From: Thermoleophilia bacterium
GTDB lineage: Bacteria; Actinomycetota; Thermoleophilia; RBG-16-64-13
DNA: 64,000 bases
NCBI GenBank assembly: GCA_040768135.1
Contig: JAXGNF010000001.1
Location: forward strand, 16,257 to 80,256
Direction: 5' to 3'
Positions 21,384-61,750 of this stretch are shown here, one piece after another. The number at the start of each line of letters is the position of its first letter. Positions within the stretch are counted from its first letter, which is position 1. Both the position numbers and the translations under genes were made by a program. The notes below the pieces were generated by a model. It had not been told where the DNA came from. It saw nothing but the letters and a program-made list of their open reading frames with translations, and made no database searches.

Positions 21384-22751
21384 TCAGGTCCTCCAAGCCC
21401 GGCCTGTCTCTATCATGGCTTTGAGCGTCTCCGGTTTGGCGTCGTCGACCACCGCGCCGCTCATGAGCATGAAGCCGCCGTCTCCGGCGCACGTATCAAG
21501 CAGCTTGGTTACATATTCCTCGACCTCTTGTGCAGTACCGAGGGCCAGTAGCGAGCTTGGTACGTTGCCGGCTATGCAGGCCCGACCCTCGAGGGCGCGC
21601 TTGGCAGCAGCCATATCTGTCTGATCGAACAGCCAGATGACGCTTCCCGCTGGTATCTCGTCGTCGGCGATCACGTCGAGGCGAGAGTTGTACCCGCCTT
21701 CGGCAAACATGACCGGAACCAGGCCCTGGTCTATCACCCCGTTCATCACGGCCTTCAGGGTCGGCCAGTAGAACGTGCGGAAATCGGCATCGGACATGAA
21801 GCCGTCGGCCCCCTTATGCAGGACGAAGATGATTAGGGGTGCGTCCCCAAGCGCGGCTTGACCGAGAGCCCAATCGATCATGAGTGGGGTGAGGCGCTCC
21901 ACCGCCGCGAGTATCTTCTCTGGTTGTCTAAAGCGGTCCATGGCGATGCCCCTGGTGCCCCGTAGGGTATCGGCAAGAACATCATAGGGGGCCTTTGCAA
22001 GGCCTGCCGCTATGGGTGGGATTCCCAGGCGTGCGGCTGCGTCGGTATTTGCCGCTCCTACTGTTGACAGATAGCGGATACTCTCCTCAGCAGCCTCGGC
22101 AAGCCGACGCACACCATCCAAAACAGCGGGGTCGGCGAACGGCAGGATGTTGACAGGGATCATCGACGCTTCCATGATATTTGCGAACGATTCGAGTCCT
22201 GCCAAGGCGGCGAAGGAAGAGCCGATACGTGGGAGAAATGTCCGTCGGAAATAGTCTGACGGATCGGCGATGAGCGCATCGTACTCATGGGGTTTCATGT
22301 ACTCAGCTTCGAGGTACTGCCACGGTGTGTTGTCATCGACTCCGCGGCCCGGCCACTGTATAAACTGTAGGCCCAGAAGGTCGAAGACGGGCGCGGGGGG
22401 CGCTGGCTGGGACTGGTAATCGGGCCGGAACTCCTCATAGAAGGCGATCTGAGCCGCTGCCAGTCTCTCATAGTCGTACATGGCTTCTCTGTGCGAGAGG
22501 CCGGCGTAACGCACCGGATAGAAGCCCATCATCGGGGACACGGGTACGCGGTCGGGCTTGAGAAGCCGCAGGGCATCGATGAGCAGCTGCACTCGTTCGG
22601 CATACGCTGAGCGGGCTGAGGTGGTTGCGAAGGGGACGTTCTTGGCGCCTATCCAGCGCCGGAGGCGGCGGGCCCGCCGTTCTCGCCACTTCAGCCGATC
22701 CCAACCAGGGATCAGCAGGTCGTTCGGTACCGGCTTGTCGACGTCATTCAT
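21384..22751 (-). CDS. Uroporphyrinogen decarboxylase (URO-D)/MtaA-like family protein (putative methyltransferase)
   Basis: C-terminal ...FAEGGYN...CIAGNVPSSLLALGTAQEVEEYVTKLLDTCAGDGGFMLMSGAVVDDAKPETLKAMIE resembles the URO-D/MtaA family core. Confidence 0.5.
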   Translation of the reverse strand: MNDVDKPVPNDLLIPGWDRLKWRERRARRLRRWIGAKNVPFATTSARSAYAERVQLLIDALRLLKPDRVPVSPMMGFYPVRYAGLSHREAMYDYERLAAAQIAFYEEFRPDYQSQPAPPAPVFDLLGLQFIQWPGRGVDDNTPWQYLEAEYMKPHEYDALIADPSDYFRRTFLPRIGSSFAALAGLESFANIMEASMIPVNILPFADPAVLDGVRRLAEAAEESIRYLSTVGAANTDAAARLGIPPIAAGLAKAPYDVLADTLRGTRGIAMDRFRQPEKILAAVERLTPLMIDWALGQAALGDAPLIIFVLHKGADGFMSDADFRTFYWPTLKAVMNGVIDQGLVPVMFAEGGYNSRLDVIADDEIPAGSVIWLFDQTDMAAAKRALEGRACIAGNVPSSLLALGTAQEVEEYVTKLLDTCAGDGGFMLMSGAVVDDAKPETLKAMIETGRAWRT

Positions 22752-23139: not shown

Positions 23140-24984
23140 TTAGACCAGAAGCTCTGCGACCAGGTCATCCAGGCCGTACTTCTTCAGGGTGTCGGGTAGC
23201 GGTATGCCGGTCTCGACATCCCAGCCCATCTGCTCGTAGTAGTTGTCGCGAATCGTATCCCAGTGCTCTCGTATACCAATGCCCGCAGCGGGTCCGTCGA
23301 GTGGGGTGGAGCTGTAGCGGACCGACGGCGCCTCCATCTCCTTGTTGAGGCCGTGACGGAAGTTGAACATCCGCATCAGGTTGACGATGCGAAGGCCCAT
23401 CTCTTTCGCGCTCTCTATGTCCCAATCCCAGCCGGTAACGGCGTTGATGATCTCCAAGGTGAGAGCCAGACTGGGCGTGCAAAGGCGGCAGATACCTAGA
23501 GAATCCTCGACATTGCGGCCTCCGTTGAGCCAGGCGTTCATGGTTGACATAGCAATTGGGTCGAACCGGTCTTTCACTCGTTCCAAGCCTAGGTTGGGCG
23601 GGGTGAACAAATGACCGCCGGTTTCGATGGTGCCGGTATTGGAAAGGCAGGTATCGATGAATTCCGACCAGTGGCCCCGGTGGTCGTGACCGCGGGGAGT
23701 GGCTCCCTTCATGGTGTAGACGCAACAGTCCTGGGCTTCGCCCCCGACCCTCTCGGCCGACCGCTTGGTGCCCTCGGCAAAGAGATCACCGCAGCCTTCC
23801 CGGTGGGCGATCTTTCTCAAGATGGAGGCGACCGCTTCAGAGTCACCCCAGTTCATCTCGATCCCGTCAAAGTCGTCTGTGGTCAAGTAGCCTTTTTCGT
23901 AGCACTCCATGAACCAGGCGATCATGTAGCCTGATTCGTTGATGTCGAGCCCCAGCCGGTCGACGAGATTGCAGAGATAGAACGTGTCGGCCGGATCAGT
24001 CATGCCGATCAGGGGTCCCATCTCGGCCGTTCCCTCGTATTCGGGTTCTTCGCCGACGAAACCGGCGTACCGCCCCTCCGGCAACTGCGAGATACGGCAA
24101 TGGGCGATAGAGCACATCCAACAGGCAGAGGGTTTGTTCGGAAAATGCTCGCGCATGTATTCTGGTGTGTACTTGTTGCCCTCGGGCCAGACATTGGTTG
24201 TGTAATTGCGCATGGGGACTGCGCCCATGGCGGCGAGCGGGACCAATCCAGCGTTGGTGCCGAACTTGACCAGACCGGGGTCGACTTCCTCGGTGAACTT
24301 GGCCAGCTCCTTCGCCTTGGCCACCAGGAGCTCGGGATTCTCCACCCGGGGCTTCACATTGCCTTTGACTGCCGAGAAGCACTTGAGCTTCTTCGAACCC
24401 ATGACCGCGCCTACCCCGTTATGAGCGGCCACGTGGCCACGGTCGCCTACGATCGCTGAAAAACGAACGAGATGTTCGCCTGCGGGACCAATACTGTAGA
24501 CGCTGCACCTACCTTTGGTCTCAGCTTTGACGGCATCTTCGGTCTCCCAGGTGTCCAGTCCTACCAGATGCTCGGCGTCAAGCAGATGGACCGTGCCGTC
24601 CTGGATGTGAAGGCGCGTCCACTTGTCTGCAGCTCCCTGGACGATGACGCCGTCAATGCCGTTCGTCCGCATGAAAGCGCCCATGAACCCGTTGGCCTGA
24701 GCCGTCCCGGCCATGCCGGTGCAGGCCCCGAGAGTGGTGACGGAGAAGGTCCCCGATCCACAAACCCTTGTCCCTGCCAGAGGGCCGGTGAAGAAGGTCA
24801 GCCGGTTTTCAGGATCCGACCACTTCACGCCGGCGGGAACCTCGTCCCAGAGATATTTGGTGGCGAGGCCGGTGCCGCCTACGTACTTAGCGGTAGTCTC
24901 TCCATCGATGATTTCTTCGGTGATCTCGCCGCTTCCGAGGTCGACCCGCAGAATGCGTAATGTGTATGGTCCTTCTCCTGACAT
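23140..24984 (-). CDS. Aldehyde:ferredoxin oxidoreductase family tungsten enzyme (AOR paralog 1)
   Basis: N-terminal ...ILRVDLGSGEI... AOR domain with conserved AOR core motifs. The ATG at 24984 has an AAGGAG RBS. Confidence 0.85.
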   Translation of the reverse strand: MSGEGPYTLRILRVDLGSGEITEEIIDGETTAKYVGGTGLATKYLWDEVPAGVKWSDPENRLTFFTGPLAGTRVCGSGTFSVTTLGACTGMAGTAQANGFMGAFMRTNGIDGVIVQGAADKWTRLHIQDGTVHLLDAEHLVGLDTWETEDAVKAETKGRCSVYSIGPAGEHLVRFSAIVGDRGHVAAHNGVGAVMGSKKLKCFSAVKGNVKPRVENPELLVAKAKELAKFTEEVDPGLVKFGTNAGLVPLAAMGAVPMRNYTTNVWPEGNKYTPEYMREHFPNKPSACWMCSIAHCRISQLPEGRYAGFVGEEPEYEGTAEMGPLIGMTDPADTFYLCNLVDRLGLDINESGYMIAWFMECYEKGYLTTDDFDGIEMNWGDSEAVASILRKIAHREGCGDLFAEGTKRSAERVGGEAQDCCVYTMKGATPRGHDHRGHWSEFIDTCLSNTGTIETGGHLFTPPNLGLERVKDRFDPIAMSTMNAWLNGGRNVEDSLGICRLCTPSLALTLEIINAVTGWDWDIESAKEMGLRIVNLMRMFNFRHGLNKEMEAPSVRYSSTPLDGPAAGIGIREHWDTIRDNYYEQMGWDVETGIPLPDTLKKYGLDDLVAELLV

Positions 24985-25037
24985 GGGAACGTTCTCCTTC
25001 TGTAGTCCCACAGTAGTCCGACACAGGCAGCCTTTCG

Positions 25038-25889
25038 TCAGCCGGCGCCTCCCGACAGGTTGATGTCTTCTCCAGTGATGTACTTTGCCCGGTCGGACAC
25101 CAAGAACGACACTAGGTCGGCGATGTCCTGTGGGGTGCCCAGGCGGCCTAGAGGGATGGGAGGAGGGCCGGCCTGACCCGTGGGGCCTGTCGTACCGGCC
25201 TTCAGCGATTCCTCGACACTGACGCCTCGTTCCGCCGCCTGTCTGGCAACGCTATCGTCGCGGAAATTGGTGTCGAACCCGCCGGGATTGATGGCGTTGA
25301 CGTTAATCTTGTAGGGGGCGAGCTCCATGGCAAGGGTTTTCATGAGACCCAGCAGGCCGTGTTTTGAGGCGGCATAACCGGCTCCTCCCGGGTAGGGCCC
25401 GACGCCGGCCATGGAGGAGACCAAGACGATCTTCTTGCCTTCGGGGTTGGGGATCATGGTCTTGGCCACCTCTTTGCAGACCAAGAAGGCGCCGGTGAGG
25501 TTGATGTCGAGGAGCATCCCCCAGGTCTCCTCATCAAGATCGACTACCGGCACAGGGACCGGGCCGCGTATCCCCACGCAGTGCACCAAGATGTCGATCT
25601 TACCGCACTCTTCGAGGGCCCAGGCCACTAGGGCCTCGACGTCGGCGCTCTTGCTGACGTCGCAGGTCAAGGGAACGCCCTTGCGACCCAGGGCTCGTAT
25701 TTCGGCTACGACGTCGTCCAAGCCCTGCCACCCCTGGTCCTCGGCCCAGATAGTCTTCGGCACGGCGAACTTGTCGGCTACCACCACATCGGCGCCATCT
25801 TTGGCCAATTGCACCGCGATGGCACGGCCCATACTCCGCTTGGCCGCTGCTCCGGTCACCAGGGCGACTTTGCCGGTCAACCCGCTCAT
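25038..25889 (-). CDS. SDR family oxidoreductase
   Basis: TGAAAKRSMG Rossmann motif with a catalytic Y...K. Confidence 0.8.
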   Translation of the reverse strand: MSGLTGKVALVTGAAAKRSMGRAIAVQLAKDGADVVVADKFAVPKTIWAEDQGWQGLDDVVAEIRALGRKGVPLTCDVSKSADVEALVAWALEECGKIDILVHCVGIRGPVPVPVVDLDEETWGMLLDINLTGAFLVCKEVAKTMIPNPEGKKIVLVSSMAGVGPYPGGAGYAASKHGLLGLMKTLAMELAPYKINVNAINPGGFDTNFRDDSVARQAAERGVSVEESLKAGTTGPTGQAGPPPIPLGRLGTPQDIADLVSFLVSDRAKYITGEDINLSGGAG

Positions 25890-26728
25890 AGTAGACCTCG
25901 CTCTCTCAGGTACCCTTCGATGTTGAAGGTGGCCTGTTGGGACAGGACGGGCTGGCCTCCTGCGACGCAGAGAGTCTGCCCGGTCACGAAGTCGGACAGT
26001 TCGGACGCGAAGAATAGGGCAGCCCCCGCGATGTCTTTGGGGGTCCCCATCCTGCCCAGCGGCACCTCGTGTTTTGACACGGCTGCGAAGAACGCGTCTC
26101 TTTCCGGTCCGGGCGGCATCAGGGAATCCCAGAAGGGGGTCTCGATCGGGCCAGGGACGATGGTGTTGACGCAGATATTGAAGGGAGCAAGCTCGAAGGC
26201 GAGGTTCAGGGCGAGCCCCAACACTCCCGCCTTGGCCGCATGGTAGTGGAGGACCGAGACCACCGGAGACACGGCTCCCATTGACGAGACGAAGACGACC
26301 TTACCGGACTGCTTCTGTTTCATGGTGGGAAGGACGCGTTCAGTGACCAGCCAGGGGCCTTTGAGGTTAATGGCAAGTATCCGATCCCACTCGACTTCGT
26401 CAAAGGTGCCGGTCGCTCCGCTTGCGTGGGTGCCGGGGACGCCGCCTGCGTTGTTAATGAGGATGTCGATGGTCCCGAACTCCTCGAGGGTCGTCGCCAC
26501 CATCGTCGCCACCTCGGCACTATTGGTGATGTCGGCTTTGACGGCGAGGGCCTTGCCACCTTGGGCCGCCACCTCAGCGGCCACGTTCTGGGCGCCGTCG
26601 AGGTCAAGGTCGCACAACACTACTCCTGCTCCCTCTTCAGCGAACTTCAAGGCTATGCCTTTGCCCATGCCTTTTGCTCCGCCGGTCACGATTGCCACTT
26701 TGTCTTTGAGCAACATGTTCTGCTCCAT
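25886..26728 (-). CDS. SDR family oxidoreductase
   Basis: VTGGAKGMGKGIA motif; 4-nt overlap with the downstream SDR gene. Confidence 0.8.
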   Translation of the reverse strand: MEQNMLLKDKVAIVTGGAKGMGKGIALKFAEEGAGVVLCDLDLDGAQNVAAEVAAQGGKALAVKADITNSAEVATMVATTLEEFGTIDILINNAGGVPGTHASGATGTFDEVEWDRILAINLKGPWLVTERVLPTMKQKQSGKVVFVSSMGAVSPVVSVLHYHAAKAGVLGLALNLAFELAPFNICVNTIVPGPIETPFWDSLMPPGPERDAFFAAVSKHEVPLGRMGTPKDIAGAALFFASELSDFVTGQTLCVAGGQPVLSQQATFNIEGYLRERGLL

Positions 26729-26753
26729 GTCCGAGGGAGCCGTATAGCGCTCC

Positions 26754-28649
26754 CTATTCTGTTGATAGGACGTCTTCTAGACCGAGGGCGGTGATGCGCT
26801 CTTTCGCTATGGCCCCCGTCTCAAAATCGAAACCCATGGCTTCATAGAACTGTCGTTTGAGACCCTCGGAGTCGATAGTCACGCCCTTGAGGGTTCCTGT
26901 TTGCAATGGAGGGTTGCCCCTAGCGCGTTCGGGCAGCTTGAAGTCGCCGGGTGTGAAGCCCTCGCGTAAGTTGAAGGCGTGGAGGAGGGTGGTGATCCTG
27001 TAGCCCGTCTCCACTATCTCGTCGTAGTCGAGGCCCCAGCCGGTAATCGCGTTCATGCATCCCAGAAAATCCAGGGGCATGCTGTCGATGCCGAAGAGGC
27101 AGGCGCCCGATGTATTGACCCAGTGCTGCCACCCTGCCAGTATGGCATGGTACTTGCCCTTGTCGGTGGGATCATACGGGTCCATTTGGAAGGGGACTCC
27201 CATGCCCGCATACGCCCTTTCGTTGACTCCGCCGTGCTCCGCGAAGGCCGTGCCGCCCCGGGTATGTCTGCCGGGCGTCGAGTCAGAGATATAGGTGGCC
27301 CCCCAACCGGGGAAACAGCGGGGATCATGCATGGCAAGCATCTCGCCTCCCGCGTGCATGGCGAACTGTTCCGCACCCCCACCGATCTTCTCGGCCGCCC
27401 ACTTGGCGCCGTCGGCAAGGATATCGCCGATGCCCTCACGTCGACACATCTTTTCGAGCACTCCCACATGGGCGTCGCTGTTGCCCCAAGTGAGCTCCAG
27501 ACCGTCGGTATCGGCCCTGGTGATGATGCCGTTCTCGTAGCATTCGATGGCGAACGCCACGGTGGCGCCTGCCGAGATGGTGTCGAGCCCGTAGAGGTTG
27601 CAAAGCTCGTTCGCCCAGATGAGCGACTCCATGTCATCGTTGAGACACATGGGCCCAAAGGCAGCCAGCGTCTCGTATTCAGGCTTATGTGTGTCGCTCA
27701 CCGGATATCGACCGTCTTCGACGGTGAGGACTGAGCCACAGGCCACCGGACAGGTCGCACACGCATACTTCTTTTTTACATACTTGGCCATGCCGTTCCA
27801 GGCCACCGAGTCCCACCTGGGCTCGGGGAAGTCTTCGATGTTGTTGCCGCTCCAGTTCTTAATAGGAACGTCGTGATCGTGCATGTGCATGATCATGGCT
27901 CCCGGAGTGCCACCGTGAGTGAGACCGAAGAACATCCCCGAAGGGTTCTCCTTAGTCTCTCGGATCATCTCCTTCATCATGGCTTTGATGGCCGGTCTAT
28001 CGAGGACTTCAGGACGCATGCTTCCTGTGCAGGCGACCGCTTTGAGATTCTTGGAGCCCATGACCGCGCCCAGGCCGGACCGGGCTGCCGCTCTACCCCG
28101 GTCGTTCATCACGGCGGCGATCCGAGCCAGGCGCTCCCCGCCCGGACCGATGACCGCCACCTTCAAGCTCCTATCGCCGTTCTCCTCCCGGATCATCTCC
28201 TCGGCGACGGCGGTGTCCTTACCCCAGAGGTGGCGGGCGTCTTTGAGCTCCGCGGTGCCATCTCGAATAAGCAAGTAGACCGGCTGCTCGGCCTTTCCTT
28301 CGAAGAAGACCAAGTCATAGCCGCCCGCTTTGAAGGCGTTGGCGAAATCGCCCCCGCAGTTCGCGTCGCCCCAGTAGCCGGTCAGGGGCGACTTACCCAT
28401 GGTGGCAAAGCGGCAGGTAGAGTAGACGCCGGAAAGGGTCAATGGGCCTGTGCCTATGCCAAAGATGTTGTCTGGTCCGAGGGGGTCTACACCGGGCCTC
28501 ATGCGCTCCATGATGACCCGGGCGCCGATGCCGTAGCCGCCGACGAACCGCCGGGCGGTCTCCTCCGAGAGCTCCTCTTCGTGGAAGGTCCTGTTTGTCA
28601 GGTCGACGAAAAGGAGCCTCCCCATATATCCGTATCCAGCTCGTGCCAT
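26754..28649 (-). CDS. Aldehyde:ferredoxin oxidoreductase family tungsten enzyme (AOR paralog 2)
   Basis: 631 aa with an AOR N- and C-domain pattern paralogous to 23140..24984. Confidence 0.85.
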   Translation of the reverse strand: MARAGYGYMGRLLFVDLTNRTFHEEELSEETARRFVGGYGIGARVIMERMRPGVDPLGPDNIFGIGTGPLTLSGVYSTCRFATMGKSPLTGYWGDANCGGDFANAFKAGGYDLVFFEGKAEQPVYLLIRDGTAELKDARHLWGKDTAVAEEMIREENGDRSLKVAVIGPGGERLARIAAVMNDRGRAAARSGLGAVMGSKNLKAVACTGSMRPEVLDRPAIKAMMKEMIRETKENPSGMFFGLTHGGTPGAMIMHMHDHDVPIKNWSGNNIEDFPEPRWDSVAWNGMAKYVKKKYACATCPVACGSVLTVEDGRYPVSDTHKPEYETLAAFGPMCLNDDMESLIWANELCNLYGLDTISAGATVAFAIECYENGIITRADTDGLELTWGNSDAHVGVLEKMCRREGIGDILADGAKWAAEKIGGGAEQFAMHAGGEMLAMHDPRCFPGWGATYISDSTPGRHTRGGTAFAEHGGVNERAYAGMGVPFQMDPYDPTDKGKYHAILAGWQHWVNTSGACLFGIDSMPLDFLGCMNAITGWGLDYDEIVETGYRITTLLHAFNLREGFTPGDFKLPERARGNPPLQTGTLKGVTIDSEGLKRQFYEAMGFDFETGAIAKERITALGLEDVLSTE

Positions 28650-28658
28650 GCCGACCTC

Positions 28659-30761
28659 CTACACGTTCATGGCAGTCCGGAGCCCTGTGCCCACCGCGTC
28701 GGCTATGAGTCCGGGTTGAGCGCAGTCGCCTACCGTGTAAATCTCGGGAACTCGGCCCTCGAGCTTGGCTCTGAGGTCTTCTTTGGCGGTCAAGGGCAGC
28801 GCTGAGACGAAGGTGTCGGCCTGGAGGGTTCTCATCTGGCCTTCCTTGGTGATGATGGTGAGGCCCTCGTCGGTGATTTCTACGTACTCCTTCACTCCCG
28901 AGATCATCTCGACGCCCTTCTTCTTGAACCAGATGGTGAGGTAGCCGAGAAGGGCGGGGACCATGCCCTCACCCAACGTTTCCGCGGTGTCGACGATGGT
29001 CACCTTCCTGCCTCGCTTGACCAAGAACTCGGCCAGCTCACAGCCTTGGAGCGCACCGCCGATCACCACCACGTTTTTGCCTATGCCCGGCATATAGAAT
29101 CGAGTCAGTGATCGTAGGGTGTAGGGCGTAAAGAAGCGTGAGTAGAACTTGAGCTGTTTGTGGAGGTCACCTCCGCTCACTACATTCGGTCCATCGATCC
29201 CTTTGATGGCAGGGACGGTCGGCGAAGCGCCCGTGGCAAGAAAGACCACGTCGGGCTTGAGTTCTTCCACAGTCGAGACATCGGCTTCTTTGCCCAAAAC
29301 CACTTTGACGCCGAGTTTCTTCATCTGCCCTCGCAGGTACTTGACGATCAAAGGCACATCCTCAGGATGCGGTCCTTTGACCATGGCTGCGATCGGAAGC
29401 AGCCCGCCCAGTATGGGGGCTTTTTCATAGAGGGTCACGTCATGGCCTCGCAGAGCCGAGACCCGGGCGGCCTCCATGCCGGCAGGGCCGCCTCCGATAA
29501 CAAGCACCTTCTTCTTGATCTCCGCGTCACGGATGGTGTTGACGGGCAGCCCCATGAGCGCATTGATACGACAGCGCCTGCTGCCGAGGCAGTTGTCGCA
29601 GCCGGTACACGGAGCTATATCGTCCAGCCGGCCCTCTTTGATCTTGTTGACATACTCGGGATCGGCGTGGAGCCGTCTGGTCATACCGATGAAGTCGGCC
29701 ATACCCTGCTCTAGGATCTTCTCACCTAGGTCGCAATCCAGCCTACCCACCACAATGACGGGGATGGAGACCTTTTCTTTGATCCCTGCGGCGAGGAGCA
29801 TGTTGGCACCCGCTCCCTTGCCCTTCGTGTAGTACTCCTTGGGGAAGTTCTTCAGGGGGATAGGTGCATCGGGATAGAAGAGTGCGTCGCACAGGTAGGC
29901 GGCTTCATGGTATCCGATCCAATGGCTGCGCACCATGATGCCATCGGCGCCCGCCTTTTCTATGTACCGAGCGTGTTCCTGGGCCACTTCTGCTGGGATG
30001 CAGGAGCCGTCATCGATGTCGCAGATCTGGCCGACCTCGAGGCCGTTTATGCAGACCGTGACTGGGAAGTCTGAGCCGCACAGCCTCTTGATCTCAGTGA
30101 CGACCTGACAGACGAAGCGGCTACGGTTCTCGGCGTTACCCCCGTATTCGTCCGTGCGTCTGTTCCAGAATGGCGAGAGGAAGTTGTGGAGGAGGTGGCT
30201 GCTCGAAGCATTGATGTCCACCCCGTCGAAGCCCGCCTTCTTTGCCCGAAGGGCACACTGGGCGAACTTCTCCACAACGGCTTCGATTTCGGGGATGGTC
30301 AGCGGGTGGGGGACCTCGTTGTGGAAGTCGGTCTCGCAGGGTACTGTCACGGTTGAGGCGGCGTAGGGCAGGCCGGAGTACGGCGGGTTTGGTACGAAGG
30401 GTAGGTGTACCTGCCAAGTACCGTCATGGTTCATCTGCATGAAGGTCGGGCAACCGTGTTTGTGGATCACGTCAGCGATCTGCGCCATTCCCGGGATGTA
30501 CTTATCGTCATCGAGCCGGTAACGGTCGCGCCAGCGACAGCCTGCCGGGTAGTCGACGGTGGGGGATTCGACGATTATCAGTCCAGTGCCACCTCGCGCC
30601 ATCGCCTCGTAGAAGGCTAGGACCTCGTCTCTCATGACCACGTCGTCTTCATGCCACATCATCACTCCGGCCCCGGTCTTGATGATGCGGTTACGGGTGG
30701 TGACGGGCCCGATGCGGCCCGGTTCGAGCAGCTTCACGTACTTATGGTTACTGTTGGTCAA
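28659..30761 (-). CDS. 2-enoate reductase family flavoprotein (OYE-like + 4Fe-4S + FAD/NAD(P) domain), paralog 2
   Basis: 700 aa; Cys motif CTGCDNCLGSRRC; C-terminal GGGPAG dinucleotide-binding domain. Confidence 0.8.
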   Translation of the reverse strand: MTNSNHKYVKLLEPGRIGPVTTRNRIIKTGAGVMMWHEDDVVMRDEVLAFYEAMARGGTGLIIVESPTVDYPAGCRWRDRYRLDDDKYIPGMAQIADVIHKHGCPTFMQMNHDGTWQVHLPFVPNPPYSGLPYAASTVTVPCETDFHNEVPHPLTIPEIEAVVEKFAQCALRAKKAGFDGVDINASSSHLLHNFLSPFWNRRTDEYGGNAENRSRFVCQVVTEIKRLCGSDFPVTVCINGLEVGQICDIDDGSCIPAEVAQEHARYIEKAGADGIMVRSHWIGYHEAAYLCDALFYPDAPIPLKNFPKEYYTKGKGAGANMLLAAGIKEKVSIPVIVVGRLDCDLGEKILEQGMADFIGMTRRLHADPEYVNKIKEGRLDDIAPCTGCDNCLGSRRCRINALMGLPVNTIRDAEIKKKVLVIGGGPAGMEAARVSALRGHDVTLYEKAPILGGLLPIAAMVKGPHPEDVPLIVKYLRGQMKKLGVKVVLGKEADVSTVEELKPDVVFLATGASPTVPAIKGIDGPNVVSGGDLHKQLKFYSRFFTPYTLRSLTRFYMPGIGKNVVVIGGALQGCELAEFLVKRGRKVTIVDTAETLGEGMVPALLGYLTIWFKKKGVEMISGVKEYVEITDEGLTIITKEGQMRTLQADTFVSALPLTAKEDLRAKLEGRVPEIYTVGDCAQPGLIADAVGTGLRTAMNV

Positions 30762-30794: not shown

Positions 30795-31274
30795 TCACTT
30801 GTTCCACCGCGACTTGTCCACTGTATAGGCCTCGGCCTCCACTTCGGGGGGCGAGGCTTCCCAGAAGAAGCGGATCGTATCTATTTTGAGCGCGCCGCTA
30901 TCATCGAGCGAGAGCTCGTATAACGGCAGATAGTCTTTCTCCACCTTCACCAGATCGGTGGACGTCTCATAGATCGTGGCCCGAACGAAGGCCACCGCCA
31001 CCATCCGTTTCTCGTCGACGAAGATGTCGTGGACCACGAATCGCTCGTAGTCCTCTGGGTGGCCCGTCAGCATGTTATAGAAATCCTCGCGGCTCTTGAT
31101 GGCGTTTTGAGGCCCGCCGAACAAGTACATGTAGGGGATGAAGGTGAGGTTGGGTGCAAAATACTTGTCCATGGCGTGGACGGTCTTGGCGTCTTGGGCG
31201 CTGGCGTTGTATTCAGCGAAGTAGTCCTTCATCCACTGAACGATCTCGTCATATGTCGGCTTCATGCTCTTCAT
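30795..31274 (-). CDS. NTF2-like (SnoaL/ketosteroid-isomerase-like fold) small protein, paralog B
   Basis: 159 aa, PTYDEIVQWMKDYF...; clear paralog of the adjacent 31320..31832 gene. Confidence 0.45.
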   Translation of the reverse strand: MKSMKPTYDEIVQWMKDYFAEYNASAQDAKTVHAMDKYFAPNLTFIPYMYLFGGPQNAIKSREDFYNMLTGHPEDYERFVVHDIFVDEKRMVAVAFVRATIYETSTDLVKVEKDYLPLYELSLDDSGALKIDTIRFFWEASPPEVEAEAYTVDKSRWNK

Positions 31275-31319
31275 CCTCTGATGATTTGCCGGGCCTCTCG
31301 TCCGAGGTCCGGGGGCGGG

Positions 31320-31832
31320 TTATGCGTACTTACGTTGAGGTCCCTCCGGGTTGTTCTTCCAATCGCGTTCAAACACGTCGTCGATCTCGAGTGCTCCGGC
31401 CGGCAGGATCTCCCAGAAAAAGTCGAGACGCTCGATCTTGATGGTCCCGTCTTCCTCCACCAGTGGATAGCGGCACAGATAGCGCTTGGTAAGCAGCAAC
31501 TCCTGGGTGTCGCGGTCGATGATGTCGGTCCTTATTTGGGCTACGAAGACCAGCCGCCGCTCGTCGATGACCAGATGTTCGGGTGTCAACCGCTCAATTC
31601 CCGAGGGATGCGAGGTCAGCACCTTGTACCAGTTGTCTCGACCCTCTACCTTGCCCACGTAGGCGATGAAAGGGTTGTACACGACATCTTTCGAGAAATA
31701 CTTGTCCATACGGTGGATCTCGGCTGGGTCCTGGCCGTATTTGTTGAACTCGTCGAAGTATTCGTCGATCCAGGCGGCAAGTTCGTCATAAGTCGGTTGC
31801 ACGGTTGCGTCCTCCCGGTTGCGGGATGCCAT
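31320..31832 (-). CDS. NTF2-like small protein, paralog A
   Basis: 170 aa, PTYDELAAWIDEYF...; start overlaps the stop of the upstream cupin gene by 1 nt. Confidence 0.45.
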   Translation of the reverse strand: MASRNREDATVQPTYDELAAWIDEYFDEFNKYGQDPAEIHRMDKYFSKDVVYNPFIAYVGKVEGRDNWYKVLTSHPSGIERLTPEHLVIDERRLVFVAQIRTDIIDRDTQELLLTKRYLCRYPLVEEDGTIKIERLDFFWEILPAGALEIDDVFERDWKNNPEGPQRKYA

Positions 31833-32311
31833 CAGAAGTTCTTTACGTAGTTCGGATCGTTGGCCGCTTCGAACATGAAGATAGGGGTGTCGATCCTCTT
31901 GATCGTGATGGGACAGTGCTCCACTCCTTTGGGGACGAAGATGAGGCAGGTCTTGGTGACCGTGTGTTTCTCTCCGCCTATGTTGACCTCGATCTCTCCG
32001 CCCAGATCGCGTGGATAATTGCGGTTGGTACCCCCGAAGCCGATGACTTCATCGAAGTCGTGGGTGTGCGGTATTTCGATGTCGACCGGCTTGCCTCCAG
32101 GCAGCCCCCACAGTATCTCGCACCCCACGAAGAGCGGACATCCGGGAACGATGGAGTCCATGATCCCCAAGAGCATCGTCCTGTCGAGGATCTTTCCCTC
32201 CTTGGCCTGGTCTTCCATGGCCTTGACCATGGCCTCAGGCATGGGAGGCATCCGGTCCTCGGTAAGGAAGTACTTTCCGTACTTGGATTCGGTCCTCTCC
32301 GGTTCGGTCAT
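31832..32311 (-). CDS. Cupin-fold metal-binding protein, paralog B
   Basis: Cupin motif 1 PHTHDFDEVIGFGG and motif 2 PKGVEHCP. Confidence 0.55.
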   Translation of the reverse strand: MTEPERTESKYGKYFLTEDRMPPMPEAMVKAMEDQAKEGKILDRTMLLGIMDSIVPGCPLFVGCEILWGLPGGKPVDIEIPHTHDFDEVIGFGGTNRNYPRDLGGEIEVNIGGEKHTVTKTCLIFVPKGVEHCPITIKRIDTPIFMFEAANDPNYVKNF

Positions 32312-32775
32312 CTTGTTTCTCCTTGTTCCATTTTTTCCCGATGGCCACCCGGGTCGGCTTCGGCAAGGCTGCCGGCTCCGATCATCACCGTCATCTCCAG
32401 ATGGGGTCTCGTGAACCTTTTCCAGGTTAGCGGCCCGTGTTTCACTCCTTTGGGGACAAAGACCGAGGAGGTCTTGTTGATGATGAGGGCCTTGCCGTCG
32501 ACCATGAATTCGATCTCCGCTCCCAAGTCTTCTTGATCTTCGGGGTCGATGCCCACATGCATCACGATCTCGTCGTAGTCATGGACGTGTTCCCCGATGT
32601 GTGGATTGGGATCCGGCATCGCTTTTATCCAGCCGACCTCCACGTACATGTTCGTTCCGGGGACGAGGTTGTTGCTCATAAGGGTCATTGCCGGTATACG
32701 TCCTGCCACCTCGAAGGCTGGGATCACCTCATAGGCCGGGCTGCGCACGAAATATCTCTCAGCGTCGAGTGCCAT
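32308..32775 (-). CDS. Cupin-fold metal-binding protein, paralog A
   Basis: EHVHDYDEIVMHVG and PKGVKHGP; 4-nt overlap with paralog B. Confidence 0.55.
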   Translation of the reverse strand: MALDAERYFVRSPAYEVIPAFEVAGRIPAMTLMSNNLVPGTNMYVEVGWIKAMPDPNPHIGEHVHDYDEIVMHVGIDPEDQEDLGAEIEFMVDGKALIINKTSSVFVPKGVKHGPLTWKRFTRPHLEMTVMIGAGSLAEADPGGHREKMEQGETR

Positions 32776-34204
32776 AGTGCTCCGTCCTTTCTAGTAGCTC
32801 GCCCGTCTTCCCGGGGTGGTTCAGTTGCTGCCCGTCACAGGCGACTACATATTTCTGCATGAGTCGCAGCGCTTTTGCCGGTTCACTCTGGGCCAAGAGG
32901 CCCAAGGCGAAAAGCACGTAATCAGCGTCGAGCATGAACTGGGGTGCCTTGGGCTTGAGTAGCAGGGGGTACGCTGTATCGAACACCGCCCCTGCCAACA
33001 CCTCGGCCGGGTCGGCCGAAAACGACACCGGTCCACCGGCCCCCACCACCCATCGTAACTGGGTGAGGTCTTTGCCTCTTTGTACAACGACCTCCCCGTC
33101 GGGGGTCACGATGTGTTTCAGCGAACCTACGTGTCTATCGACCGCGGAGCGTACGGCCACCTTGGCAAGGAGTAGATGGCAGGCGGTCTGCTCATCCCCG
33201 CTGGGGACGCTGTTTTCCCGACACATGACGGCCACCAAGTCGTCGAAGTTGTCGGGTAATTGCTCCATCTCCGCTATCGTCTGCAGGGTATCGAGGTTAT
33301 GGAACAGACCCAAGTCGCCCTCCACAGTGCGCTTGGCGTACGGCTCGGCCAAGCCGAGGAAACGTACGGTACCGGAGGTGGGTGCCCCCGTGGCGACGGA
33401 GTAGACATCAGTTGTGGCCCCACCAACATCGACCAGAAGCAGTTCACCTATGCCCTGGTGGCCGTCGGTGCCGTCGGCCAGAAGCTTCGCGGCTTCGAGC
33501 ACTGCGGCCGGGGTAGGCATGATGACATCGGCTATGAGGCTCCGGGCCCGGCTGATGCCCTTCGCTTCAGTGATCCGGGCGATGAAGAGATCTCTGATCT
33601 TATGGTTGGCCGCGTCAACTTCCAAGATGCCGATCTCAGGCATGACGTTGGTAGTGAAGAGGACGTTTTTGCCCGAGCCGGCGAATAAGGCCTCGACGTC
33701 GTCATAGGCCGACTTGTTGCCGGCGACGATGATGTTGGTGATGCGGGAGCCCGCTCGAGCCAGCAACGTTGCGTTGTGAGTAATGACTTTCTTATTGCCG
33801 CCGTCGGTGCCCCCCGTAAGGAGGACTATGTCGGGAGCGATCTCTTCGATCTCTCGCAGTTCGCGTTCTGACAATTCGAAAGAGTACGAAGCCACTATCT
33901 TGGCCCCGGCTCCTAGAGCGGCTCTGCGACCGGCCTCGGTGGTGTAATCAGGCACCAAACCTACGCACACGACCCGGAGTCCGCCGGCCGCGCTACTGCA
34001 AGCCACGGTCTGTCGTCGTTCGGTCTCTCCGAAAGGAACTTTCTCGGCGAGGAGCGCGAAAGCCTCTTCGAGGGCGATCGTCACATCTCGGTCGACACTG
34101 GAAGGCACCTGCACCCGACCGATGAGCTCCTCGGCCTCCAGGTCGAATGCCACCAATTTGGTGAAAGTACTGCCGAAATCGACGAAGAGCCGTGTGCTTG
34201 TCAC
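32759..34204 (-). CDS. glmL: MutL/GlmL family protein (glutamate mutase accessory ASKHA-type ATPase, putative reactivase/chaperone)
   Basis: N-terminal VDFGSTFTKLVAFD signature; ~480 aa; sits immediately downstream of glmS. Confidence 0.65.
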   Translation of the reverse strand: MTSTRLFVDFGSTFTKLVAFDLEAEELIGRVQVPSSVDRDVTIALEEAFALLAEKVPFGETERRQTVACSSAAGGLRVVCVGLVPDYTTEAGRRAALGAGAKIVASYSFELSERELREIEEIAPDIVLLTGGTDGGNKKVITHNATLLARAGSRITNIIVAGNKSAYDDVEALFAGSGKNVLFTTNVMPEIGILEVDAANHKIRDLFIARITEAKGISRARSLIADVIMPTPAAVLEAAKLLADGTDGHQGIGELLLVDVGGATTDVYSVATGAPTSGTVRFLGLAEPYAKRTVEGDLGLFHNLDTLQTIAEMEQLPDNFDDLVAVMCRENSVPSGDEQTACHLLLAKVAVRSAVDRHVGSLKHIVTPDGEVVVQRGKDLTQLRWVVGAGGPVSFSADPAEVLAGAVFDTAYPLLLKPKAPQFMLDADYVLFALGLLAQSEPAKALRLMQKYVVACDGQQLNHPGKTGELLERTEHYGTRR

Positions 34205-34235: not shown

Positions 34236-34673
34236 CTATAGTTCACGGACGCCGGTCCGTCTACGACCGAGGTCGGCTTTCAGGTCTTCGATGGCCAACC
34301 TCACATCGGTCTCAGGGGGATAAACACGGTCGAAACCCATCCGCCTGAATTTGGCCTCGTCTTCGGGAAAGTTGCGTCTGGACACACCCAGAATGCCCCC
34401 GATATAAAGGATGATGTCCTCCAGGCCGGCCTCGGTGCATTTATCGCGGAAACCCTCGAGGTCCAACTCGGCCATGCCGTAGAGCGAACTGATCATCATG
34501 GCGTCGGCCGCCGTCTCTTGGGCAGCCATGATGAACTCTTCCGGCGGAGTCTGAGCACCTAACTCCACCACCTTGAACCCTGCCTCCCGGAGGGCTCGGG
34601 AGACGATCTTAGTCCCGATGACGTGGGCATCGACTCCGACGGTCCCTGTGATGACGCAGCCTATATGGTCCAT
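34236..34673 (-). CDS. glmS: Glutamate mutase sigma subunit (methylaspartate mutase S chain), cobalamin-binding Rossmann domain
   Basis: DxHxxG motif (GVDAHVIG) and ...SSLYGMAELDLEGFRDKCTEAGL...GG...FRRMGFDRVYPPET... closely match clostridial GlmS/MutS (recalled from memory). Confidence 0.8.
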   Translation of the reverse strand: MDHIGCVITGTVGVDAHVIGTKIVSRALREAGFKVVELGAQTPPEEFIMAAQETAADAMMISSLYGMAELDLEGFRDKCTEAGLEDIILYIGGILGVSRRNFPEDEAKFRRMGFDRVYPPETDVRLAIEDLKADLGRRRTGVREL

Positions 34674-34707: not shown

Positions 34708-35619
34708 TCAAACCGCGACCTCACAGGGGAGACCGCGGGCTTCTACGATATTGCAGGCGGCCTGCATGAATGCCGGTGACGGCGTTTCGGCGGTCGCCAG
34801 TTCATAGTCGAGTCCCAGCATGTCGTACTTCTGCTGACCATAACGGTGGTAGGGGAGGAGGTGTACCGTCGCTCGGGGAGCGTGGGTGGCCACCATCTCG
34901 GTGATATCGGAAATGGCATCGCTTGTGTCGTTGAAACCCGGGACTACCGGTATGCGCACTACCAGGGATACGTCGCTCGCTGCCACCTCGTCAAAATTAC
35001 GTAGGATGGCTTCGTTTGAGCAGCCGGCTTGGATCCGGTGGATTTTTGGATCGATGTGTTTGATGTCGAAGTAGAAGAGATCAGTGTAGGGGATGATCCG
35101 CCGCAGTGCTTCAAGGCTACCTTGTCCCGAGGTGTCGACGCATGTGTGGAAACCCGCCTCGCGACACCTCTTGAGGAGAGCCACGGCGAATTCGGGCTGC
35201 ATAAGGACCTCTCCACCCGACAAGGTGATACCTCCACCTGAGTCCTCATAGAAGTCGGCGTCGCGTTCGAGGACGGCGAACACCTCGGCATCCGTCATCT
35301 CCTTGCCTGTGATACGCATGGCGTCATGAGGACAGGCATCGACGCAATCCCCGCATACAGTGCAGGCGTCGCGGTCGATCACAATACCGTCTGAGCCTAC
35401 CGTGATGGCGCCCCCGGGACAGGCGGTCACACACCGATAGCACCGTTTACAGAGGGAGTCGCGGTGCATGAGTTCGGGAATGATACTCTGGGACTCTGGG
35501 TTCGAACACCACACGCAACTCAGAGGGCAGCCCTTGAAAAAAACCGTAGTCCGGATACCCGGACCATCGTCGATGCTGTACCTCTGGATGTTAAACACGA
35601 TCCCCGTCACCGTTGCCAC
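34708..35619 (-). CDS. Glycyl radical enzyme activating enzyme (radical SAM) with a two-[4Fe-4S] ferredoxin-like insert
   Basis: CPLSCVWC radical-SAM motif (CxxxCxxC variant) plus CKRCYRCVTACP and CTVCGDCVDACP clusters, the glycerol-dehydratase/BSS-type activase architecture. Confidence 0.85.
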   Translation of the reverse strand: MATVTGIVFNIQRYSIDDGPGIRTTVFFKGCPLSCVWCSNPESQSIIPELMHRDSLCKRCYRCVTACPGGAITVGSDGIVIDRDACTVCGDCVDACPHDAMRITGKEMTDAEVFAVLERDADFYEDSGGGITLSGGEVLMQPEFAVALLKRCREAGFHTCVDTSGQGSLEALRRIIPYTDLFYFDIKHIDPKIHRIQAGCSNEAILRNFDEVAASDVSLVVRIPVVPGFNDTSDAISDITEMVATHAPRATVHLLPYHRYGQQKYDMLGLDYELATAETPSPAFMQAACNIVEARGLPCEVAV

Positions 35620-35702: not shown

Positions 35703-38258
35703 CTAACCTACCTCATGCATGGTCCGCTCAACGATCTCGTCCTGCAGCTCGGGCGGTAGGTCGACGAAGTAAGCGCTGTAGCCCCCTACACGGACCAGTA
35801 GGTCCTTATGGGCTGCCGGTTCTTTGCGCGCCTCCACGAGTTCTTCGACACTGTGGATGTTGAACTGGATGTGCCAGCCCCCACGTTTGGTAAAAGTCTT
35901 GATGAGAGAAGACACTTTGCTCAACTTCTCCGGACTGTTAAGCACGGCCTTGGAGAACTTCATGTTGTGGGCTACTCCGGCGCACTCGTACGGGGTCGGG
36001 TACTTGGTGGCCGAGAGGATCAGGGCGGTTGGGCCGTTGACGTCGCCGCCCGGCATGGCTGAGGTGCCGCCATCGTAGATGGGGGTACCGGCATAGCGCC
36101 CGTTGGGCATCGCACCCACGGCTTTTCCCTGTGTCACATGGCCGGCCGCCGCACCCTTGAACAACATGGGTTTCTCGCCGGTGATGGGGTCGGGACGGCT
36201 TTGCAGGATCCCCTGAGTATCCCGGGATAGCCGGACGTACCAGTCGTCCACATAGTCGTCATCGTTGCCGTATTTGGGGGCTTTGAGGCACATCTGACGG
36301 ATATCCTCATGGCCCTCCCAGTTGGCGTCCATGGCGTCCAACAACTGGGCCATGGTGATCTTTTTCTCGTCGAACACCAGGTATTGGACGGCCGCCATGT
36401 AGTCGGCGCAGTCGCAAATGCCTTTGTCGCCCACCCAGGAGGCCTTGCCGATAGGGTAGCGGCAGCCGCCTTCGCGTGAGGCCAACCCGGCCGGGATACA
36501 GTCACGGAAGAGCATGCCGGCGCGTAACCCGCTCATCGGGCTGTTGGCGATCTCGCTGGTCCACCAGATGAAGTAGTGGTCACGCATCTTTTCCGCGAAG
36601 TAATCCTCCTGCTTGAGAAAGGCTTCGTAGAGCTGTTCGATGGATGTGAACGTTCTCGGGTCGCCGGTGTGCAGGCCCACTTGCTTGCCCGTGCGGGGGT
36701 CGAAACCGTCGTGGAGCGTGACTTCCATGACTTTGGCCTGAACAAGGTTGAAGGCTCCAGCCATGTGTTCGGCGCATTCCAAATGGTAGCCGAGGCACCC
36801 GCTTGCACTCCAGTTGCAGGCATCCTCTATGGGCACACCTCGGTCAAGGTAGCGGCGGGTCCCCAACTCGTCGTTCAAGAAGGCAGGATTACCCCCACCG
36901 AACTCGCGGTTGCATTCGAGCGCATGGATGATGAAGTTCTCGTCCTGCTCGTCGTGATAGCGGACGTAAACGGCCGGCTCCGATAGGTGGACCTGAGCCA
37001 TAACCTCGAGGATCATCCAAGAGAGCTCATTGGTGAGATCGTTGCCGTCTTTGTCTCGGCCGCATAGAGTGACGTTGGGCAGTTGGCTACCGGGAGCGGC
37101 GCGGTGCTCGCGCTTGATGGTGACCAAGTTCTCGACTTCGCGGATCTTCAGCCACATGGCGCCTATCAGCTCAGCTGCCTGCTGGCGGGTAAGGTTCCCG
37201 CTCTCGATATCGGCCTTGTAGTACGGGTACCAGAATTGGTCGATCCGTCCGATCCCCACCTCAGCTCTTTCGGGGCTCTCTTTCCAGGCGGCCAGATGCA
37301 TGAAGCGCACCGATTGGACGGCTTCCCAGAAGTTGCGAGGCGGCTCAGCGGGTACATGTTCACATACGTCCGCGATCTTCTCGAGCTCGGCCTTGCGGAC
37401 CGGGTCAGTCGTTGTGGCGGCCATCTCACGGGCCAGAGCGGCATGTCGCTTGGCAAAATTGATTACGGCCTCGAACATGATGACGATGGACTTGAGTAGG
37501 TACCACTTGCGGAGGGCGTTGACGCTCGAGCGGTCCTCCAACGCGCCTTCAGCCTTCATCTTCTCCATCTCGGCCTTGGCCAGACCGATGACGTGCCTGA
37601 AGCCGAGCCTCAACACCTCGCCGGAAAGCATGATCACGCCGCCGCCCATAGCGCCGTAACCCTGGAAGAGGCCCCGGTCGGGGTTCTCACGCACGCCGCG
37701 GCCCTCGAGGATCATCGCGTGGTCGAAGAGGAGGTCGAAGTGCTCTTTGCCGAGCTCTTCTTCAAGGGCCACGTTCACATAGTTGACCGGGTTCATGTGT
37801 TCGACCCAGTATTCGGCGTCGGCTGTAAGCTTCTCCAGATCTTCGGGGTCGATGACCGTCGAGGAGATATCACTCAGCTTGCGGTCGAAACGGCCACTTT
37901 TGCACATGGCCAAGATCTCACGGGGCTTCACAGCGCAAAGGGTGTTGTTGCCGCGGATGAACTTCGTTGACGAGCCTACGATGATCTCGTCGTCGCGAAT
38001 CAGGATGGGACAGTTCTCCATCCTCTTCTCGAACGCCTTGGCCCAGCGGAAGTCGACCGGCATCTGCTCGGTCTCTTTCCAGGATTCGGTGAACAGCAGT
38101 GTGTCGTCTACATAAACCTGTGGAGCGGCGTCTTCCCACTCCTTCTTCAGCTTATTGAGACGATCGGTCATGACGACTACCGATTTGATCTCTTTTGCGG
38201 CGTCCGGGTGGATGGTGCCTTGGATCACGGGGGTGATGTTCGAGGATTCCACTGCCAT
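35703..38258 (-). CDS. Glycyl radical enzyme (pyruvate formate-lyase superfamily) of unknown specificity
   Basis: 851 aa with a C-terminal glycyl-radical motif RVGGYSAYFVDL...Q.EIVERT and a Cys loop ...EDACNWSASGCLGY.... Confidence 0.9.
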   Translation of the reverse strand: MAVESSNITPVIQGTIHPDAAKEIKSVVVMTDRLNKLKKEWEDAAPQVYVDDTLLFTESWKETEQMPVDFRWAKAFEKRMENCPILIRDDEIIVGSSTKFIRGNNTLCAVKPREILAMCKSGRFDRKLSDISSTVIDPEDLEKLTADAEYWVEHMNPVNYVNVALEEELGKEHFDLLFDHAMILEGRGVRENPDRGLFQGYGAMGGGVIMLSGEVLRLGFRHVIGLAKAEMEKMKAEGALEDRSSVNALRKWYLLKSIVIMFEAVINFAKRHAALAREMAATTTDPVRKAELEKIADVCEHVPAEPPRNFWEAVQSVRFMHLAAWKESPERAEVGIGRIDQFWYPYYKADIESGNLTRQQAAELIGAMWLKIREVENLVTIKREHRAAPGSQLPNVTLCGRDKDGNDLTNELSWMILEVMAQVHLSEPAVYVRYHDEQDENFIIHALECNREFGGGNPAFLNDELGTRRYLDRGVPIEDACNWSASGCLGYHLECAEHMAGAFNLVQAKVMEVTLHDGFDPRTGKQVGLHTGDPRTFTSIEQLYEAFLKQEDYFAEKMRDHYFIWWTSEIANSPMSGLRAGMLFRDCIPAGLASREGGCRYPIGKASWVGDKGICDCADYMAAVQYLVFDEKKITMAQLLDAMDANWEGHEDIRQMCLKAPKYGNDDDYVDDWYVRLSRDTQGILQSRPDPITGEKPMLFKGAAAGHVTQGKAVGAMPNGRYAGTPIYDGGTSAMPGGDVNGPTALILSATKYPTPYECAGVAHNMKFSKAVLNSPEKLSKVSSLIKTFTKRGGWHIQFNIHSVEELVEARKEPAAHKDLLVRVGGYSAYFVDLPPELQDEIVERTMHEVG

Positions 38259-41668: not shown

Positions 41669-41681
41669 CTAGGCCCCTTTC

Positions 41682-56272: not shown

Positions 56273-56371
56273 GCCGCCGCACCCTTCGCGTATGTCTATC
56301 TTTCACAATGTGTACCCCGACCTGTTTTGGGATGTCCGCGCCCACGAAAGCTCATTTGTCATATCCGACGG

Positions 56372-61730: not shown

Positions 61731-61750
61731 CCGCCCGGCTCCTTCGCGCG

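Follow-up and report, generated by a model that had tools for sequence, protein, structure and literature searches.

On the minus strand of the Thermoleophilia contig JAXGNF010000001.1, a stretch of 64,000 nt (hereafter the window) carries two pairs of small genes in tandem, named here cupA/cupB and ntfA/ntfB, whose products are cupins and NTF2-like proteins, respectively. They lie in an array of genes for much larger enzymes, among them a glycyl radical enzyme (GRE), subunits of a B12 mutase, an OYE-type Fe-S flavoenzyme and tungsten-type AORs, and the question raised by this locus is what four small proteins contribute in such company. The answer that we favour, with a probability of about 0.4, is that the cupins would be metal-dependent, enolising catalysts which operate as two-barrel units and transfer a proton, and that the NTF2-like proteins would form an acid-base module, both acting on a carbonyl acid of the pathway.

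Two paralogous pairs, their folds and their relatives

The four open reading frames (ORFs) were found on the minus strand where the first-pass annotation had placed them (Table 1), and the two paralogies it proposed were confirmed by BLASTP: cupA and cupB are 37% identical over 92 aa (E 2e-18), ntfA and ntfB 36% identical over 140 aa (E 3e-34). The motifs on which it had drawn are also present: both cupins carry HxHDxDE and PKGV(E/K)H, and PTYDE(L/I)..W..(E/D)YF is shared by ntfA and ntfB. The 64-kb window contains no further copy of either type. The true start of ntfB is probably the second ATG, at 31265 (156 aa), as in the source record. The claim that each pair is translationally coupled, through overlaps of 4 and 1 nt, holds for the cupins, which share a 4-nt ATGA overlap, but not for the NTF2-like pair: the 1-nt TGATG overlap is that of cupB with ntfA and links the two pairs, and a 45-nt gap separates ntfA from ntfB. 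(In some other genomes, e.g. at loci L101 and L104, the tblastn matches of the two NTF2-like genes share 4 nt.) At the other end, the GlmL gene overlaps the start of cupA by 17 nt. Thirteen consecutive genes, of which the GRE (start 38258) is the first and the second AOR (end 23140) the last, follow one another with gaps of at most 83 nt. The best promoter-like match lies directly upstream of the GRE, and on the coding strand of this array all terminator-like matches are inside genes, none being intergenic. The position of the pairs between mutase and reductase genes, as it had been described, needs some qualification: the mutase genes upstream are only those for GlmS and GlmL, and the GlmE-like gene for the catalytic subunit lies 20 kb away.

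Both cupins score below the threshold of the Pfam model Cupin_2 (PF07883), with 15.2 bits for cupA and 21.1 bits for cupB versus 27.2, and no NCBIfam model matches the cupins or the NTF2-like pair. The AlphaFold2 (AF2) model of cupB (pLDDT 92.3) is all-beta after an N-terminal helix, and Foldseek aligned it with cupins at a probability of 1.0; there were 169 PDB matches at E≤0.001, with cupins at the top ranks, in agreement with the fold first proposed. By its homology to cupB, cupA is assigned to the same fold. The residues H82, H84, E88 and H132 (cupB numbering) were invariant in the homolog alignments, one of which included cupA. This HHEH quartet was present in 42 of 44 cupA orthologs, in 85 of 86 cupB orthologs and in most other members, and further acidic residues are invariant in the cupA and cupB lines and, in each of the two halves, in most bicupins (see below). 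Because HHEH is kept in both paralogs, both look catalytically competent, with a predicted metal site.

Sequence searches with cupB detect no relatives of solved structure other than MarH (6j4b) and the 7eqk/7eu6 series (taken here to be StnK3); these are also its top Foldseek matches. The phmmer match has an E-value of 1.6e-5 over 67 residues, the profile match one of 0.004, and the identity is 17-22%. Like cupA and cupB, these proteins are small monocupins, with PHxHxxDE and PxGxEHC motifs. They are cupin-fold epimerases which, by enolisation, invert the beta-carbon of (R)-beta-methyl-indolepyruvate, a beta-methyl 2-oxo acid, so that the epimerised carbon is the one adjoining the 2-oxo acid (PMC4742848). 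There are clear differences, however. A conserved N-terminal extension of ~60 residues is carried by cupA and cupB, which occur in tandem, in multiple copies and, in other members, as fused bicupins; and MarH and StnK3 belong to Streptomyces secondary metabolism (maremycin and streptonigrin), whereas the present genes lie in anaerobic catabolic clusters of uncultured bacteria. Neither the S-adenosylmethionine C-methyltransferase nor the pyridoxal phosphate aminotransferase of a MarH-type three-gene cassette was found in the array or in related loci. Another likeness is to KdgF/KduI of uronate catabolism, with the SDR KduD, and to the cupin sugar isomerases: these are also metal-dependent cupins that isomerise a carbonyl compound right before an SDR. 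KdgF, phosphoglucose isomerase and phosphomannose isomerase are among the Foldseek neighbours of cupB, but at TM-scores of only 0.4-0.6 and with undetectable sequence similarity, and the neighbours here (GRE, B12 mutase, OYE, AOR) are unlike those of the uronate pathways.

As for the second pair, the AF2 model of ntfA (pLDDT 84) consists of three helices and then a curved sheet, and the NTF2-like fold is upheld by 351 PDB matches at E≤0.001, those listed at the top being NTF2-like proteins; ntfB is placed in the same fold through its homology to ntfA. Against SnoaL_2 (PF12680, threshold 27 bits), ntfB scored 23.5 bits and ntfA gave no match. The structural neighbours of ntfA include SdnG, AusH, ketosteroid isomerase, limonene epoxide hydrolase and LinA, none of them prominent. 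These enzymes, the SnoaL-type cyclases and BaiE share with ntfA and ntfB the alpha+beta cone fold (TM-score up to 0.61/0.76) and a polar inventory of the His/Asp/Tyr type in a hydrophobic pocket; unlike them, the proteins described here come as an A/B pair and nearly always adjoin the cupin family. PDB sequence and profile searches with the NTF2 family gave chance-level matches only, and hhalign comparison of its alignment with BaiE and LinA, using approximate sequences for these two, gave a probability below 1%. Within the family, H75, E80 and D90 are 100% invariant, and Y25, Q34, Y45, K116, Y118 and Y122 are conserved in at least 95% of the members, whether of the A line, of the B line or more distant. 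Conceivably, H75 is the counterpart of the catalytic His of BaiE, LinA or scytalone dehydratase. The family is narrower than that of the cupins (113 word-index matches). A cupin of the present family lay within 1 kb in 11 of the 14 NTF2-anchored metagenome loci with enough flank; in the reverse direction, an NTF2 gene was nearby in only 18 of 60 cupin-anchored loci. The dependence of the NTF2 genes on the cupins runs one way. A similar company is known from the bai operon, where NTF2-like dehydratases are likewise encoded together with SDRs, CoA transferases and OYE-type Fe-S flavoenzymes.

Conservation, fusions and gene company of the cupins

An exhaustive search among 1.84 billion representatives returned 864 relatives of cupB. 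Its orthologs, 64-94% identical, stem from metagenome-assembled genomes (MAGs) and metagenomes only, namely those of Acidobacteriota, of Dehalococcoidia and, within the Actinomycetota, of Thermoleophilia and Gaiellales, besides a small number of deltaproteobacterial and spirochaete bins. Almost all of them bear the label 'hypothetical', and an occasional one that of 'cupin domain-containing protein'. The behaviour of cupA was similar, with 632 matches and orthologs that are 70-86% identical (Actinomycetota, Dehalococcoidia, Acidobacteriota) and all labelled 'hypothetical'. Because the orthologs of either gene are 65-90% identical across phyla and those of one line only ~37% identical to those of the other, the sequences indicate that the duplication is old and that both lines are strongly constrained. 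For Acidobacteria (L022, L023, L145), the values were 79-83% for cupB versus 62% for the GRE, 54-55% for the activase, 61-62% for GlmE and 66-67% for GlmS.

Fused forms are frequent. Among the best 150 representatives of the cupB search, 67 have the size of a bicupin (260-400 aa), and those inspected carry two cupin domains. The fetched loci contain 20 ORFs with two cupin-domain matches, mostly full bicupins, including some in short-read assemblies (L063, L072, L078); in L050, the second match is a short fragment only. An apparent fusion of the cupA and cupB orthologs in L019 was not relied on, as it is possibly an assembly indel artefact, and for this reason the fusion evidence is that of the short-read assemblies. 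As Rosetta-stone proteins, the fused bicupins support a cupin-cupin functional unit made of two barrels. In Dehalococcoidia we also observed a separate subfamily of fused bicupins of 307-313 aa (L081-L090, e.g. L084 10004-10930), whose N-terminal domain is ~42-45% and C-terminal domain ~30% identical to cupB; a few of the first domains are without HHEH. No reliable NTF2-NTF2 fusion was found: the candidate P0220 (242 aa) was rejected as an artefact because its locus has many genes broken by frameshifts.

The full cassette, GRE - activase - GlmS - GlmL - cupA - cupB - ntfA - ntfB - OYE-type Fe-S flavoenzyme - AOR - SDR - SDR - AOR, recurs in ~15 Actinomycetota loci, usually with NuoF-like, NuoG/GltD-like and FAD_binding_2 reductase genes upstream. 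No main cassette in which this part is readable lacks ntfA or ntfB; the other cluster types have one NTF2 gene. Acidobacteria have a compact operon instead, namely aldehyde dehydrogenase - Fe-ADH - GRE - activase - fused GlmE/GlmS - cupB, in which the mutase fusion is a single 637-aa protein (L145 6051-7964) with no GlmL nearby. The common order in Dehalococcoidia is OYE - cupB - cupA - third cupin, to which some loci add SDR - GlmE - GlmS - GlmL - CoA transferases - enoyl-CoA hydratase. Linkage of cupB with the mutase was thus found in three phyla, together with the GRE in Actinomycetota and Acidobacteriota and with the mutase alone in Dehalococcoidia. Its linkage with OYE was found in Actinomycetota, Dehalococcoidia, L006 and a spirochaete bin (L047), the two genes being adjacent in 9 of 13 Dehalococcoidia loci and in L006.

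There are two other types of cluster: one reads URO-D-like - cupA - cupB - ntfA - SDR - bicupin - cupin - SDR - FAD_binding_2, and the other holds cupB with one NTF2 gene. The first-pass annotation had named the occurrence of the pairs without the cluster around them as a finding that would refute it; in part this is the case, since cupins and combinations of cupins with NTF2 genes do occur elsewhere, but the complete four-gene set was found only inside. Literature searches on GREs accompanied by glutamate mutase and AOR, on cupins accompanied by dihydrophloroglucinol cyclohydrolase and on the limonene GRE found no description of the cassette. The limonene GRE itself is of the ordinary, fumarate-adding kind.

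Radical enzymes and other genes of the window

The two radical enzymes of the window are atypical. The GlmE-like protein scores just over the NCBIfam cutoff for 'methylaspartate mutase E' (406 versus 390 bits). Compared with the Clostridium enzyme, it keeps Arg66, Arg100, Arg149 and Tyr181 and has Pro in place of Glu171, presumably the amino-group-binding residue of glutamate mutase; the loop around this position has been rebuilt with hydrophobic residues (MNAFPNSFFGW). The same Pro was found in Acidobacteria and in part of Dehalococcoidia (the loci examined include L010, L022, L023 and L145). Judged by these residues, the protein probably belongs to a non-glutamate clade of B12 mutases. The likeness to the GlmES/GlmL system lies in the kept Arg and Tyr residues and in GlmS and GlmL, both over their equivalog cutoffs; the remoteness of the E gene from S and L is unlike the glutamate mutase operon. 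Canonical glutamate fermentation was rejected because the GlmE-like protein is without Glu171 and no methylaspartase-like gene is found among the annotated genes of the mutase-containing clusters.

In the GRE, the loop around Cys488 reads SGCLGYH(L/M)(E/D) in all recovered orthologs (Actinomycetota, Acidobacteria). It has neither the CxE motif, which GRE eliminases and isomerases retain (PMC13450708), nor the CC of PFL. As there is only one Cys in the loop, a PFL/TdcE-type role as keto-acid formate-lyase was rejected. No NCBIfam equivalog score was reached by this protein, the best being HpsG with 481 bits (cutoff 1000).

Table 1. Coordinates of the four small genes and of their neighbours in the window
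Feature	Coordinates	Strand	Remarks
cupA	32308..32775	-	155-aa monocupin, paralog of cupB; ligands His-x-His-x3-Glu...His kept (EHVHDYDE ... PKGVKHGP)
cupB	31832..32311	-	159-aa monocupin, anchor of the family; conserved N-terminal helix extension
ntfA	31320..31832	-	170-aa NTF2-like/SnoaL-like protein; no Pfam match
ntfB	30795..31274	-	NTF2-like paralog of ntfA; below the SnoaL_2 cutoff
GlmL-type mutase accessory protein	32759..34204	-	NF040745, 517 bits (cutoff 475)
GlmS-type B12-binding subunit	34236..34673	-	above NCBIfam equivalog cutoff
Glycyl-radical-enzyme activase	34708..35619	-	
GRE, unassigned clade	35703..38258	-	Cys loop SGCLGY, no CxE motif
OYE/FadH-type Fe-S flavoenzyme	28659..30761	-	700 aa; directly downstream of ntfB
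AOR - SDR - SDR - AOR	23140..28649	-	gaps of at most 26 nt; last genes of the operon-like array
URO-D-like protein	21384..22751	-	455 aa; recurs beside these cupins in other cluster types
GlmE-like catalytic mutase subunit	52765..54225	-	20 kb from GlmS and GlmL

Several other genes deserve mention. Long URO-D-like proteins (447-455 aa) adjoin the cupins in three cluster types and at least two phyla (L092 7523-8866; L057, L058, L061); they could be decarboxylases or corrinoid methyltransferase-like enzymes. The second SDR of the cassette gives a weak KduD-type match, and a small ORF (38493-38771, minus strand) lies just upstream of the GRE. Further upstream, the region 40217-46350 (minus strand) holds a FAD_binding_2 reductase, whose best match is the vinylphenol reductase VprA (358 bits, cutoff 600), and its NuoG/GltD-like and NuoF-like partners; all three are also kept ahead of the cassette in other Actinomycetota. 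A GCV_T protein of the same region resembles LigM and DesA, which are aryl O-demethylases. Beside GlmE, the region 54380-63169 (minus strand) holds a third AOR, an N-terminally extended SDR, a PrpD/MmgE protein and a hydantoinase A/B pair that resembles caprolactamase/acetophenone carboxylase and has an acetone-carboxylase gamma domain. The VprA-like and LigM/DesA-like proteins, the acetophenone-carboxylase/caprolactamase-like pair, an AMP-ligase and leucine/isoleucine/valine (LIV)-type binding proteins weakly hint at an aromatic or phenolic substrate; none of these proteins of the window reached an equivalog score. In the related loci L005, L008 and L093, the far end of the cassette carries a ThiS/MoaD-family gene (Pfam ThiS) beside one for a molybdopterin oxidoreductase.

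A proposed role for the small proteins and its alternatives

The role that we propose can be set out as follows. It starts from what was observed, namely the paralogies, the folds, the conserved ligands, the fusions and the linkage of genes, and goes beyond this in the make-up of the dimers, the metal, the type of reaction and the substrate. The two cupins would belong to one unnamed family of small cupins that bind a metal at a site made of three His and one Glu, and would have diverged from each other long ago. Their two-barrel unit would vary: cupA and cupB would form a heterodimer in genomes that have both, a cupin without its paralog would form a homodimer, and in other lineages the unit would be a fused bicupin. 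A bound divalent metal would polarise the carbonyl or 2-oxo-acid group of an intermediate and bring about its enolisation, with a redox-neutral outcome: epimerisation or keto-enol/double-bond isomerisation, possibly beta-elimination or decarboxylation. A lyase or decarboxylase outcome is less likely than that of an epimerase, tautomerase or isomerase. The substrate, most likely a branched carbonyl-carboxylic acid, would be supplied by the non-glutamate GlmES-type B12 mutase and/or be handed on to the OYE-type ene-reductase and the SDRs. The analogy with MarH and StnK3 bears on this point: their substrate is a beta-methyl 2-oxo acid, and Glm-type rearrangement of a 2-oxo- or 2-hydroxy-dicarboxylate would give exactly that pattern, although this is not evidence of membership. 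The chemistry first suggested for the small proteins (isomerase, (de)hydratase, lyase or decarboxylase on small acids) would also be in keeping with these epimerases as nearest relatives. In the Actinomycetota version, ntfA and ntfB would constitute a further, cupin-dependent module, probably a heterodimer, whose invariant His/Glu/Asp/Tyr set may carry out a follow-up double-bond isomerisation or a (de)hydration next to the carbonyl.

Several observations weigh against this proposal. The similarity to MarH and StnK3 is remote, at the identity given above, and the partner genes MarI and MarG are absent. Profile comparisons linked the NTF2 family to none of the characterised NTF2 enzymes and, for this reason, the chemistry assigned to it is drawn from the analogy of fold alone. 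The excess conservation of cupB, which is unusual for a small enzyme, could reflect a structural or partner-binding role. Moreover, cupB stands alone in ~10 Acidobacteriota loci where, by a crude clustering of ORFs, the neighbours are unconserved, and in an Acidobacteriota MAG (L143 8001-8480) an ortholog of ~80% identity sits among genes of the methanofuran/tetrahydromethanopterin type (MfnB-like, FTR, FwdA/C-like and ATP-grasp), with no gene of the cassette nearby. Since such stand-alone loci exist, the function of cupB is not strictly tied to the mutase, the GRE or OYE. Finally, some cassettes that are otherwise intact have cupB only (L005, L038, L040, L042) or cupA only (L101, L104, L105), which argues against an obligate cupA-cupB heterodimer; many Acidobacteria carry cupB without cupA, and Dehalococcoidia have two to four cupin-domain matches per locus. 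Of the earlier suggestion that tandem paralogs form heteromers, what remains for the cupins is a two-barrel unit, supported by the bicupins, but probably not an obligatory association of cupA with cupB.

Would another role account better for the same facts? The cupins may be there to serve the ene-reductase, by racemising or epimerising the stereocentre alpha to the ketone made by OYE for the SDR or FAD reductase that comes next, in a reductive pathway for polyphenols or aromatics; we think this unlikely. Such an arrangement has a counterpart in the equol cluster, where dihydrodaidzein racemase acts between daidzein reductase (OYE-type), an SDR and a FAD_binding_2-type reductase (PMC6566806). 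The likeness of the two systems is one of enzyme classes (OYE-type Fe-S flavoenzyme, small epimerase, SDR, FAD_binding_2-type reductase), with the GRE, the B12 mutase, the tungsten-type AORs and the NTF2 proteins as additions in the present one. The dominance of the OYE-cupB(-cupA-third cupin) order in Dehalococcoidia, the OYE-cupB pair of L006, the URO-D-like cluster type with its SDRs and FAD_binding_2 gene, and the presence in the window of the VprA-like reductase, the LigM/DesA-like O-demethylase, an aryl-type CoA ligase and the LIV-type binding proteins all go in this direction. However, the score of a polyphenol-enzyme equivalog is reached by no protein of the window, and in the compact operon of Acidobacteria cupB is found with the GRE and the mutase, without OYE or SDR.

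That the cupins are lyases or decarboxylases, catalysing either a metal-assisted beta-elimination like that of the cupin dimethylsulfoniopropionate (DMSP) lyases, which would give an enoate for OYE, or the decarboxylation of a beta-keto acid of the 3-methyl-oxaloacetate type that stems from the product of the mutase, seems to us quite improbable. The DMSP lyases DddK and DddQ, KdgF and oxalate oxidase do appear among the Foldseek neighbours of cupB, the PDB title of the 7eqk/7eu6 series is 'non-heme iron epimerase/lyase', an enoate reductase-type enzyme adjoins the cupins, and the want of an annotated methylaspartase-like lyase in the mutase-containing clusters would leave room for such an activity. 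But structural neighbours of the lyase type score no better than many unrelated cupins (TM-score 0.4-0.5), the relatives found at the level of sequence are epimerases only, and methylaspartate is unlikely as the intermediate because the GlmE-like protein is devoid of Glu171. Even more doubtful is the idea that none of the four proteins is an enzyme of the pathway, all being accessory subunits, ligand-binding or sensing modules or metal handlers for the large radical or tungsten enzymes, with the NTF2-like proteins as structural partners comparable to the beta subunits of ring-hydroxylating oxygenases. The high cross-phylum conservation of cupB relative to its neighbours, its conserved N-terminal extension, the tight translational coupling to GlmL and the fact that an NTF2 gene almost always adjoins a cupin are as expected from such a role; against it stand the HHEH site and the extra invariant acidic residues of both cupin lines, a pattern typical of catalytic cupins, the invariant His, Asp, Glu and Tyr kept in the NTF2 family, and the many genomes where cupB is alone, with no large partner nearby.

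The proposal of metal-dependent enolising cupins can be carried one step further. Conceivably, though we hold it to be improbable, cupB, to which some lineages have added cupA and the NTF2-like proteins, is the third catalyst in an undescribed anaerobic pathway that uses two unusual radical enzymes, and epimerises or tautomerises a 3-methyl-branched 2-oxo- or carbonyl-dicarboxylate made by the mutase. If so, the reaction class of MarH and StnK3 would be applied to a primary catabolic intermediate, in a route widespread among uncultured members of the Actinomycetota, Acidobacteriota and Dehalococcoidia, which seem to have been sampled from soils, wetlands, sediments and bioreactors. What is new here is the existence, inside two well-known folds, of unnamed families without a family model; they are strongly conserved, as cupB exemplifies, and mark in abundant uncultured anaerobes a cassette which combines a GRE, a B12 mutase, tungsten-type AORs and Fe-S flavin reductases. 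The triad formed by a GRE without CxE, a mutase without the amino-binding Glu and the cupin is the more novel lead and may matter more than the paralogous pairs themselves. To assign the steps catalysed by the cupins and the NTF2-like proteins would help to decode a route of carbon degradation in anoxic environments, and could add a metal-dependent epimerase/isomerase chemistry to the cupin superfamily.

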